Positions 4,582 through 4,609 of a stretch of DNA of 6,814 bases are shown here, one piece after another. This stretch comes from a virus. Position 1 is the first letter of the stretch. Every line of letters begins with the position of its first letter. The notes beneath the pieces were generated by a model. That model was given only the letters and a program-made list of their open reading frames with translations. It made no database searches and had not been told where the DNA came from. The stretch lies in the IMG/VR virus record IMGVR_UViG_3300005076_000239, positions 1 through 6,814 of that record, one strand, 5' to 3'. A program made the translations under genes and the position numbers.

Positions 4582-4609
4582 TTTTAACATATTATACATT
4601 ATACGCAAT
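4582..4609 (-). other. Canonical-geometry (11-6-11) dif-like XerC/XerD site in the gV-gVII intergenic region
   Basis: The minus strand reads ATTGCGTATAA-TGTATA-ATATGTTAAAA. This is 23/28 identical to E. coli dif GGTGCGCATAA-TGTATA-TTATGTTAAAT, with an identical central hexamer. Its XerC arm is 10/11 identical to the arm at the window ends. Confidence 0.55.

Follow-up and report, generated by a model that had tools for sequence, protein, structure and literature searches.

A dif-like duplex Xer site between the replication and morphogenesis modules of an Acinetobacter inovirus: a candidate site of module exchange

We analysed a viral DNA of 6,814 nucleotides (IMG/VR record IMGVR_UViG_3300005076_000239, hereafter the window) and found that a dif-like 28-mer, here called int, sits exactly between its RS module (hairpin-repressor-rep-gV) and its core (morphogenesis) module. 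With moderate confidence, we favour the explanation that int is an active duplex Xer site, which would make the core an Xer-bounded cassette and the site itself a hot spot for module exchange.

An earlier note on this DNA had described the site, and on re-reading its letters, coordinates, minus strand and 11-6-11 spacing were exact. The identity to E. coli dif (23/28) and the identical central hexamer were both recomputed and hold. Against Acinetobacter dif (ATTTCGTATAATGTATATTATGTTAAAT), the identity is 25/28. The runner-up 28-mers in the window score 17 (E. coli dif) and 19 (Acinetobacter dif), dinucleotide-preserving shuffles (n = 500) gave best scores of 21-22, and the degenerate core CGYATAA-N6-WTATGT has one match in the window vs 0.06 expected. 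Judged from its letters, the 28-mer is thus a genuine Xer-type site and no chance match, because it reaches 25/28 with Acinetobacter dif and 0/500 shuffles reached 23.

The XerC arm contains the inner ..CGYATAA and is 10/11 identical to the arms of the terminal hairpin (ATTTCGTATAA), as the note had it, and also to Acinetobacter dif arms. The central region TGTATA is the dif hexamer of strain ADP1 (dif = GATTCGTATAATGTATATTATGTTAAAT; PMC2731167) and of the host junctions in loci L118, L121 and L159. The XerD arm in the window matches the canonical TTATGTTAAAT at 9/11 positions, and its innermost base is an A in every family member, vs a T in host dif. This A breaks the XerD side of the ATAA-CR-TTAT motif, which reportedly governs how Xer proteins bind and cut (PMC11705084). 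On one point the note overshot: the site does not fill most of the gap that separates the gV stop (4618) from the first micro-ORF ATG, since it occupies 28 of the 78 non-coding bases, or 40 of the 78 together with an abutting conserved 13-mer.

Table 1. Features of the window (positions are those of the window).
Feature	Position	Strand	Description
Internal duplex Xer site (int)	4582..4609	minus	11-6-11, reads ATTGCGTATAA-TGTATA-ATATGTTAAAA on 4609..4582
int XerC arm	4609-4599	minus	ATTGCGTATAA
int central region	4598-4593	minus	TGTATA
int XerD-like arm	4592-4582	minus	ATATGTTAAAA
Conserved IHF-like box	4570..4582	minus	AATCAATAACTTA; adjoins the XerD arm; perfect match to the IHF consensus WATCAANNNNTTR
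Hairpin at gV stop	4620..4641	minus	AAGCCTTT-AGATTC-AAAGGCTT
gV-position gene	4618..4875	minus	85 aa; last RS gene
Replication initiator rep	4957..6306	minus	Phage_CRI / G2P_X_C; RS module
Divergent small regulator	6307..6609	plus	100 aa; RS module; homologues at the same position in L003, L004 and L006
Core (morphogenesis) module	432..4581	minus	between int and the hairpin XerC arm
Micro-ORFs	first ATG at 4539	minus	core module
Coat protein	3849-4124	minus	91 aa
pIII-like protein	2127-3788	minus	553 aa
pVI/DUF2523	1849-2196	minus	
Zot/pI	432-1769	minus	
Hairpin left arm	65..98	minus	ATTTCGTATAA-TGTGGTCGAAGA(12)-TTATGTTACAT; core-to-RS junction
Hairpin inverted right arm	6722..6750	minus	complement of ATTTCGTATAA-TGAAGAT(7)-TGATGTTAAAT; also at 1-27

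The first 91 bases of the window are identical to its last 91 bases, and the window is therefore a 6723-nt circle. It is an Acinetobacter inovirus, its relatives are Acinetobacter phages and prophages, and its major genes all lie on the minus strand (Table 1). Megablast of the whole window vs GenBank phages gave no match. A distant search with 161 nt retrieved phage M02, six "plasmids" and nothing else. When examined, M02 and the record NZ_CP017939 proved to be prophage arrays, and pC9_1 and pmZS to be plasmids with integrated phages; the other three records measure 6.4-7.0 kb. Among the 10 ORFs of the window, no Pfam match to an XafT-like activator (DUF3653) was found, and the small ORFs with no matches could hide one.

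Several elements surround the site. The end of the gV gene and the XerC arm together form the mobile right end of the RS. The IHF-like box next to the XerD arm goes with the core module and is kept in 127/133 distinct contexts. An upstream IHF-like box (TTCAAAGGCTTA; the window copy has 1 mismatch) is held in the 3' half of the gV-stop hairpin, the stem of which shows compensatory variants in other lineages. Other functions were considered for this region. A packaging signal or minus-strand origin was ruled out on the weak local DNA fold (z = -2.3, the gV-end hairpin excepted), and a Rep nick site was ruled out on the identity of the 40-bp block across phages with Rep proteins only ~32% identical.

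The window also carries a folded hairpin that spans the circle junction (bases 65-91 recur at 6788-6814 through the 91-nt overlap) and folds as ssDNA at -27 kcal/mol (z = -7.5). It consists of two inverted Xer-like sites with central regions of 12 nt and 7 nt, and matching geometries have been described for CTXphi attP1/attP2 (PMC4246890). As would be expected of a folded attP, the host C arm is joined to the hairpin at the left ends of L118, L121, L159 and L163.

The conservation of int was assessed in related phages. The pattern CGTATAATGT-N(3-20)-AAATCAATAACTT matched 112 viral contigs, and its CGCATAA variant ~29 further ones. Circularity was avoided by a search with anchors in the flanks only (ATCAAAGGCTTA-N25-55-AATCAATAACTT), which left the core of the site free: CG[TC]ATAATGTATAATATGT was present in 23/23 distinct spacers. 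All together, a 19-nt heart, CG[T/C]ATAA-TGTATA-ATATGT, is invariant in ~150 related phages, comprising the inner XerC arm, the entire central region and the inner XerD arm (ATATGT). Around this heart, the outer XerC bases are lineage-specific, and the outer 5 nt of the XerD arm vary (TAAAA, AAATA, CAATT, TAATA) with 0-2-nt indels. In two IMG/VR contigs with Rep proteins 32% and 59% identical to that of the window, the 28-mer and the 12 bases downstream are 100% identical. The site is not essential, as 7 nt of it are deleted in L006, a relative with a circular genome and 97% Rep identity.

Every context found reads RS (hairpin-regulator-rep-gV), site, core. Using a strict pattern and sites with 3.3 kb of upstream sequence, the inverted hairpin arm was found 1.9-2.8 kb upstream in 40/50 distinct sites; among the remaining 10, L143 and L149 are unrelated chance matches and L097 has a variant arm. 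The integrase-encoding relatives L155, L157 and L161, which share homologous core genes and served as negative controls, showed no hairpin, no Xer-like site and no motif after gV.

The site is also a mosaic breakpoint. In 125 distinct contexts, 38 clusters of left flanks (gV end) and 33 clusters of right flanks (morphogenesis start) are combined in 70 different ways. The outer XerC arm tracks the left flank (excess mutual information 0.77), not the right flank (0.35). The outer XerD variants are linked weakly to either flank, and for this reason did not tell on which side a crossover had occurred. As a cause of the mosaicism, homologous recombination at a conserved "linker" was rejected: the hairpin and dif joints share only the 11-14-nt arm.

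Mapping of Xer-like sites across longer loci and complete genomes revealed five junction classes, in every one of which the switch falls exactly at the border between XerC arm and central region, with only ~11-14 nt of shared sequence at the switch points. RS-to-core junctions correspond to int, and core-to-RS junctions to the terminal hairpin. In RS-to-RS junctions, the gV end and C arm are followed by the hairpin central region; in RS-to-host junctions, by TGTATA-TTATGTTAAAT and host DNA. The fifth class is the core-to-host junction. One lineage-specific XerC arm, with its gV end, may thus be found joined to core (TGTATA-ATATGT), to the hairpin centre or to TGTATA-TTATGTTAAAT-host. In L097, for example, the arm GCTTCGTATAA occurs at positions 1376, 3588 and 9816 with three different right halves. 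A scan for prophage ends at the site, proposed in the earlier note along with a comparison of the 28-mer with its neighbouring bases, found the phage-specific XerC arm fused to TGTATA-TTATGTTAAAT-host in at least 29 loci (~20 RS lineages), and the comparison gave the invariant inner arms and centre and the variable flanks described above.

Left host flanks are rare in IMG/VR contigs. Complete arrays with host flanks on both sides were obtained from L118 (A. proteolyticus CP158965), L121 (Acinetobacter sp. C26M CP098479), L159 (A. pittii) and L163 (a record annotated as plasmid, with three core units); L079 was discarded as a source of a host left flank because the sequence turned out to be an IS end. 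The complete arrays read host-Carm/hairpin-RS-int-core-hairpin-RS-Carm/TGTATA-TTATGTTAAAT-host, and the flanking RS copies are always of the same lineage and 99-100% identical (99.2-100%). RS modules also occur on their own, as RS-only circles or prophages (L003, L183, L252, L257 and L007). Of these, L003 is a circle of 2472 nt that consists of RS alone; its joint is gV-Carm/hairpin, and its Rep is 94% identical to that of the window.

Two junctions were looked for and not found. An attL at an empty dif (host left flank and C arm joined to TGTATA-ATATGT-core) was seen neither in the four complete arrays nor in ~150 int contexts. As to core-to-core junctions, of the 33 matches to CGCATAATGTATAATATGT in the viral collection, those in family members are all RS-to-core and 4 are unrelated chance matches, and core end + C arm + TGTATAATATGT gave 0 matches in two metagenome scans, which had no positive control that the collection covers this family. 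Whole-phage integration into an empty dif in the manner of VGJphi, which the note had put forward, was thus not found, and the four complete arrays start by the hairpin route. Its other suggestion, that the site lets Xer-dependent elements co-integrate, came close to the observed architecture.

The right ends of the arrays depend on the centre of the target. At chromosomal dif targets with TGTATA, 29 arrays end in RS (~20 RS lineages) and 3 in core (L069, L100 and L153). At other targets, 0 arrays end in RS and 4 in core. Two of these four, L166 and L285, are distinct phages that occupy one and the same plasmid site with a TAGAGA centre; L021 lies at a TAGAGA site in a chromosome, and L165 at a TGCCCA site in a plasmid. 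Loci such as L192 and L194, which show the left host flanks of a different phage family, are left out of the core-end counts. The difference gives a one-sided Fisher P of 6e-4, or ~0.002 by lineage, with small counts and lineages that are not phylogenetically independent; two pattern scans blind to the left side gave 17:0 vs 0:2 (P = 1/171). Such dependence would be expected if int recombines with dif, because this recombination needs identical central regions, as demonstrated for Acinetobacter Xer sites (PMC11705084), and so it argues for activity of the duplex site. Exchange between int and dif would remove the dif-proximal core or add core-RS units beside a resident RS. The pattern is predicted neither by satellite integration nor by homologous recombination. 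In L069, L100 and L153, int and a TGTATA dif are kept 4-4.6 kb apart, undeleted.

How might such a site work? The XerC and XerD proteins of A. baumannii bind arms like ACTTCGTATAA and TTATGTTAAAT cooperatively and recombine sites whose central regions match (PMC7399989, PMC11705084). From the sequences compared here, we infer that XerC and XerD would bind and act at int, in which direction the reaction would run and what part IHF may have. The int XerC arm would be the right end of the RS; TGTATA, the altered XerD arm and the IHF-like box would be the left end of the core. Host XerC would cut ATAA/TGTATA in a first-strand exchange, with XerD bound as a structural partner, and the exchange partners would be sites whose central region begins alike. 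With a chromosomal TGTATA dif, the core, or the core and a downstream RS, would be excised or inserted, which leaves arrays of the form RS-(core-RS)n and, as the junction, gV-Carm/TGTATA-TTATGTTAAAT-host. With the phage's own hairpin left arm, the core would be deleted to give RS-only mini-genomes of ~2.5 kb, and between phages RS and core modules would be shuffled. The genome itself would permanently be an RS::core cointegrate, joined at two Xer junctions. The hairpin junction probably mediates irreversible ssDNA integration as in CTXphi; at the duplex site, dsDNA is probably exchanged reversibly, with XerC making the first-strand exchange as it does for VGJphi. With its innermost XerD base altered, int is probably a poor substrate for reactions driven by FtsK/XerD, by analogy with the non-canonical XerD arms of the gonococcal island and TLCphi (PMC9226527).

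Several observations speak against an active site. Every RS-to-host junction could in principle stem from CTX-type integration of RS satellites with int taking no part, and the near-identical flanking RS copies also fit homologous recombination or tandem integration. To these are added the invariant A in the XerD arm, the intact L069, L100 and L153, the deletion in L006, and the missing attL and core-to-core junctions. It is conceivable that int is a mere junction scar, left when an RS once integrated by its hairpin into a dif-like target before a core; the duplex site would never have been a substrate, and the later RS-to-host and RS-to-RS junctions would all stem from RS satellites using the hairpin route. 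Each observed junction type is indeed derivable from hairpin-route events, RS-only circles and prophages do exist, and neither attL nor core-to-core junctions were found. We nevertheless consider a scar unlikely. It would be expected to decay, yet the centre and inner arms are the same in ~150 diverged phages in which the neighbouring bases vary. Nor does satellite integration predict that array ends depend on a TGTATA target, because the same hairpins integrated at TAGAGA and TGCCCA sites. Moreover, the first RS-only circle itself requires an exchange between int and a hairpin arm.

The conserved bases could also serve transcription, as an internal sigma-70 promoter (with a 5' leader) of the morphogenesis operon, the likeness to dif being incidental or ancestral, or the promoter possibly being a second role beside Xer; a second TATAAT would then be the reason for the T-to-A change that all members have in the XerD arm. 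The two perfect TATAAT hexamers on which the earlier note had based this reading are present, the first as part of the Acinetobacter XerC arm and the second from the family-invariant T-to-A, but they come with no -35 and no extended -10. The position, directly upstream of the first core ORF and after the gV-stop hairpin, would suit a promoter, and the conserved 13-14-mer that follows could act as leader or operator. However, a consensus scan was empty at the site, there is no -35 within 16-18 nt, the -35 position lies in the variable flank, and for both hexamers the TG is displaced by one base from where an extended -10 (TGn) would have it. The conserved CG..ATAA and ATATGT exceed what a -10 needs, the integrase-type relatives have homologous core genes without the motif, and the crossovers at the border of arm and centre, as well as the dependence on the target centre, are left unexplained. 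A promoter seems to us quite improbable as the explanation of the site, though it may be a further role beside Xer. As for a cer/psi-like function in which int would resolve dimers of the replicative form, the IHF-like boxes acting as accessory sequences, we found no specific support for this suggestion of the note, and hold it to be very improbable. The outline would fit, since the replicon is multicopy and circular and carries an 11-6-11 duplex site with conserved boxes beside it, and FtsK-independent xrs on Acinetobacter plasmids may serve dimer resolution (PMC11705084). Yet dimer resolution does not require a centre identical to dif, which is invariant here; the dif and hairpin junctions and the shuffling of modules are unexplained; the site is missing from integrase-type relatives that also replicate as circles, and is dispensable in L006.

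If the active duplex site that we favour is taken further, a two-key system of lysogeny may tentatively be proposed, which we regard as possible, if on balance doubtful. The irreversible ssDNA hairpin would plant the RS at dif, and the duplex dif mimic, with its IHF-like boxes, would move the core (or core and RS) reversibly and may serve as a landing pad for other RS elements. The phage would then be an obligate chimera of two Xer-mobile cassettes with combinatorial exchange of modules, and the dif XerC arm of many Acinetobacter strains, including the published A. baumannii arm, would be phage-donated. We know of no earlier description of such a two-key system, and no description of att sites of Acinetobacter inoviruses was found in the literature searched.

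IMEX (integrative mobile elements exploiting Xer) are understood almost wholly from V. cholerae, where prophage arrays occasionally give rise to dual-site hybrids. In the large Acinetobacter phage family described here, both sites are present as the normal state, the duplex site lying exactly at the border of replication and morphogenesis. In A. baumannii, Af phages have been reported to carry a replication/regulation module on both sides, with no att sites or explanation given (PMC11209303); an active duplex site would provide a mechanism for these two-sided modules and would account for the extensive mosaicism of these phages. It would also tie their biology to the Xer-mediated traffic of modules in Acinetobacter resistance plasmids, and the XerC arm of the reference A. 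baumannii dif may then be phage-derived. In addition, the family is a natural experiment on the control of Xer reversibility by an altered innermost XerD base and by the identity of central regions.

Among known systems, the pdif/xrs sites of Acinetobacter plasmids share the host Xer system with int, border exchangeable modules and need matching centres (PMC11705084). However, pdif pairs are usually inverted, have diverse centres and belong to plasmid modules thought to move via cointegrates, whereas the sites described here are direct repeats in a phage with a hairpin partner site, and one of their centres equals that of the chromosomal dif. Although direct orientation and a phage context set int apart from a pdif border, related phages do occupy plasmid Xer sites in pC9_1 and pmZS. 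The TLCphi attP and difB of the gonococcal genetic island are alike in that the XerC arm and centre match dif and the XerD arm is non-canonical; the segment between such a site and dif is excisable, and excision driven by FtsK may be curbed where the XerD arm is weak (PMC9226527). The TLCphi arm, however, has 8/11 deviations and needs XafT, whereas the arm in the window is nearly canonical, with 2/11 deviations, and no XafT-like protein was detected.

The VGJphi attP is likewise a canonical duplex site in the replicative form of an inovirus, with crossovers at the border of XerC arm and centre that are potentially reversible. It is a single 29-bp site with XerC-only exchange that matches dif only on the XerC side of the centre, and its prophage has both attL and attR. 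In contrast, int shares six of six central bases with dif, so that homology is not confined to the XerC side, has an altered innermost XerD base, and coexists with a hairpin, hence is not a single site; attR-like junctions are abundant but no attL at an empty dif was found. The CTXphi attP(+), in which two inverted Xer-like sites with a long (12) and a short (5-7) centre fold in the + strand, resembles the hairpin with its 12-nt and 7-nt centres and its array left ends that read host C-arm/hairpin, and the RS1 satellite has its likeness in the RS-only elements. CTXphi, however, has no Xer site between RS2 and core, the very border that is an Xer site here. More generally, the IMEX arrays of V. 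cholerae grow at dif by successive Xer events and regenerate the right-hand dif, as those of Acinetobacter would, and RS-core-RS resembles the CTX-RS1 arrays.

The closest system, with the same two-junction architecture, is that of the VGJphi::CTXphi and VGJphi::RS1 hybrids (HybPphi) of V. cholerae (PMC4246890, PMC9226527). Like the window, these hybrids combine a duplex dif-like site and a folded hairpin in one filamentous genome, and in both, a partner with a hairpin attP and a partner with a duplex attP form a cointegrate whose two junctions are these sites. Unlike the V. cholerae hybrids, the phages described here have a core partner without replication genes of its own and a centre fully identical to host dif, their host is Acinetobacter, and a whole large family has the hybrid genome as its fixed and normal form.

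Two boxes matching the IHF consensus WATCAANNNNTTR bracket the core of the internal dif-like Xer site, in the same orientation, across 133 related contexts of this joint between the replication module (RS) and the coat and assembly module (core). The downstream box, AATCAATAACTTA, stands next to the XerD arm in 127 of the 133 contexts, and an upstream box (for example AATCAAAGGCTTA) is found 9-10 or 17 nt ahead of the XerC arm in 87; by chance, fewer than 0.01 such boxes would be expected per context.

A hairpin is also found at the stop codon of gV, the last gene of the RS. It is kept in other lineages through compensatory changes, the stems then reading AAGTCATTG/CAATGACTT or AAGTGTTA/TAACACTT, and the latter version overlaps the outer XerC arm. 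There is no T-run on the coding strand; an attenuator is one possible role for the hairpin, and a structural element of the single strand another. Another hairpin, rich in G+C (the whole genome has 35%), lies within the morphogenesis module. It is missing from all of the 285 related loci retrieved, and a packaging signal, a minus-strand origin and an inserted element are all candidates for what it represents.

Features of the window and of related loci, with their positions
Feature	Location	Strand	Description
Downstream IHF-like box	window 4570-4582	-	adjoins the XerD arm
Upstream IHF-like box	window about 4621-4633	-	IHF-consensus match, one mismatch in the window
Hairpin at gV stop codon	window 4620-4641		stems AAGCCTTT/AAAGGCTT
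G+C-rich hairpin	window 1783-1860		nearly perfect, 78 nt, between pVI-like and Zot genes; 65% G+C, -61.7 kcal/mol
1.4-1.7-kb element	L179 2457-4184		right of phage array
1.4-1.7-kb element	L252 3527-5138		right of phage array
1.4-1.7-kb element	L183 6093-7495		right of phage array

The closest full-length relative, a circular contig with a 97% identical Rep (L006), carries CGTATAATGTGTAAATAAATC at the position of the internal site (L006 2470-2500): a 7-nt deletion has removed the second TATAAT together with the inner XerD arm. In another related locus (L112, position 6742), a complete site of the internal type (ATGACGTATAA TGTATA ATATGTTAAAA ATCAATAA) is joined straight to the interior of a hairpin loop, GCCCCAGTGAG; this junction is irregular, the crossover lying away from any Xer cleavage position.

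The gV-end arm of a common phage RS lineage, as read at the right ends of prophage arrays (L018, L099, L119, L159, L164 and L225), is ACTTCGTATAA; oligonucleotide ODN3 (PMC7399989) has precisely this sequence as XerC arm of the "A. baumannii dif locus". Given this identity, the XerC arm of the chromosomal dif appears to have been donated by phage in many strains. Where arrays begin on the left, the XerC arm on the host side is a different one; in L118 and L121, for instance, it reads ATTTCGCATAA.

The 1.4-1.7-kb element to the right of phage arrays begins with agaatatctgagactgt; its end is formed by AAGTCGCATAA, or alternatively AAATCGCATAA, then 7 nt and TTATGTTAAAT. Next to it in L179 comes the host flank that is usual here, aaaagatttaaaaacc. 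It seems to be one more small element that relies on Xer. The same start, agaatatctgagactgt, is present in L007 and L118, followed there by a VF530-family gene. In A. haemolyticus (L117), an inovirus of a different type, with a Rep_trans replication protein and in opposite orientation, is bracketed by AAGTCGCATAA-TATCCCA(7)-TTATGTTAAAT sites that adjoin GGTGCGCATAA TGTATA TTATGTTAAAT; this seems to be a second family that exploits Xer at this locus.

Two database records hold prophage arrays or parts of them. GenBank OQ693633 (L164) is entitled "Acinetobacter phage M02, complete genome"; since it includes host flank as well as a junction of RS to host dif, it is a prophage excerpt. NZ_CP017939 (L163), the 28.6-kb "A. 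pittii plasmid unnamed1", consists of an (RS-core)x3-RS array, then dif and chromosomal flank.

Relatives of the phage are also integrated at Xer sites of large plasmids: pmZS of A. lwoffii (L165), pC9_1 of A. baumannii (L166) and L285. The central regions of these targets are TGCCCA or TAGAGA, and one TAGAGA site is occupied by two different phages. The ends of ISNCY/ISAba32-type insertion sequences adjoin the outer side of XerC arms (L079, about 2330; L165, 9037 and 17316; L166, 3405), at phage hairpins as well as at plasmid Xer sites, which suggests that these insertion sequences target Xer sites. The plasmid-integrated relatives connect the phage group of the window with the plasmid pdif landscape.
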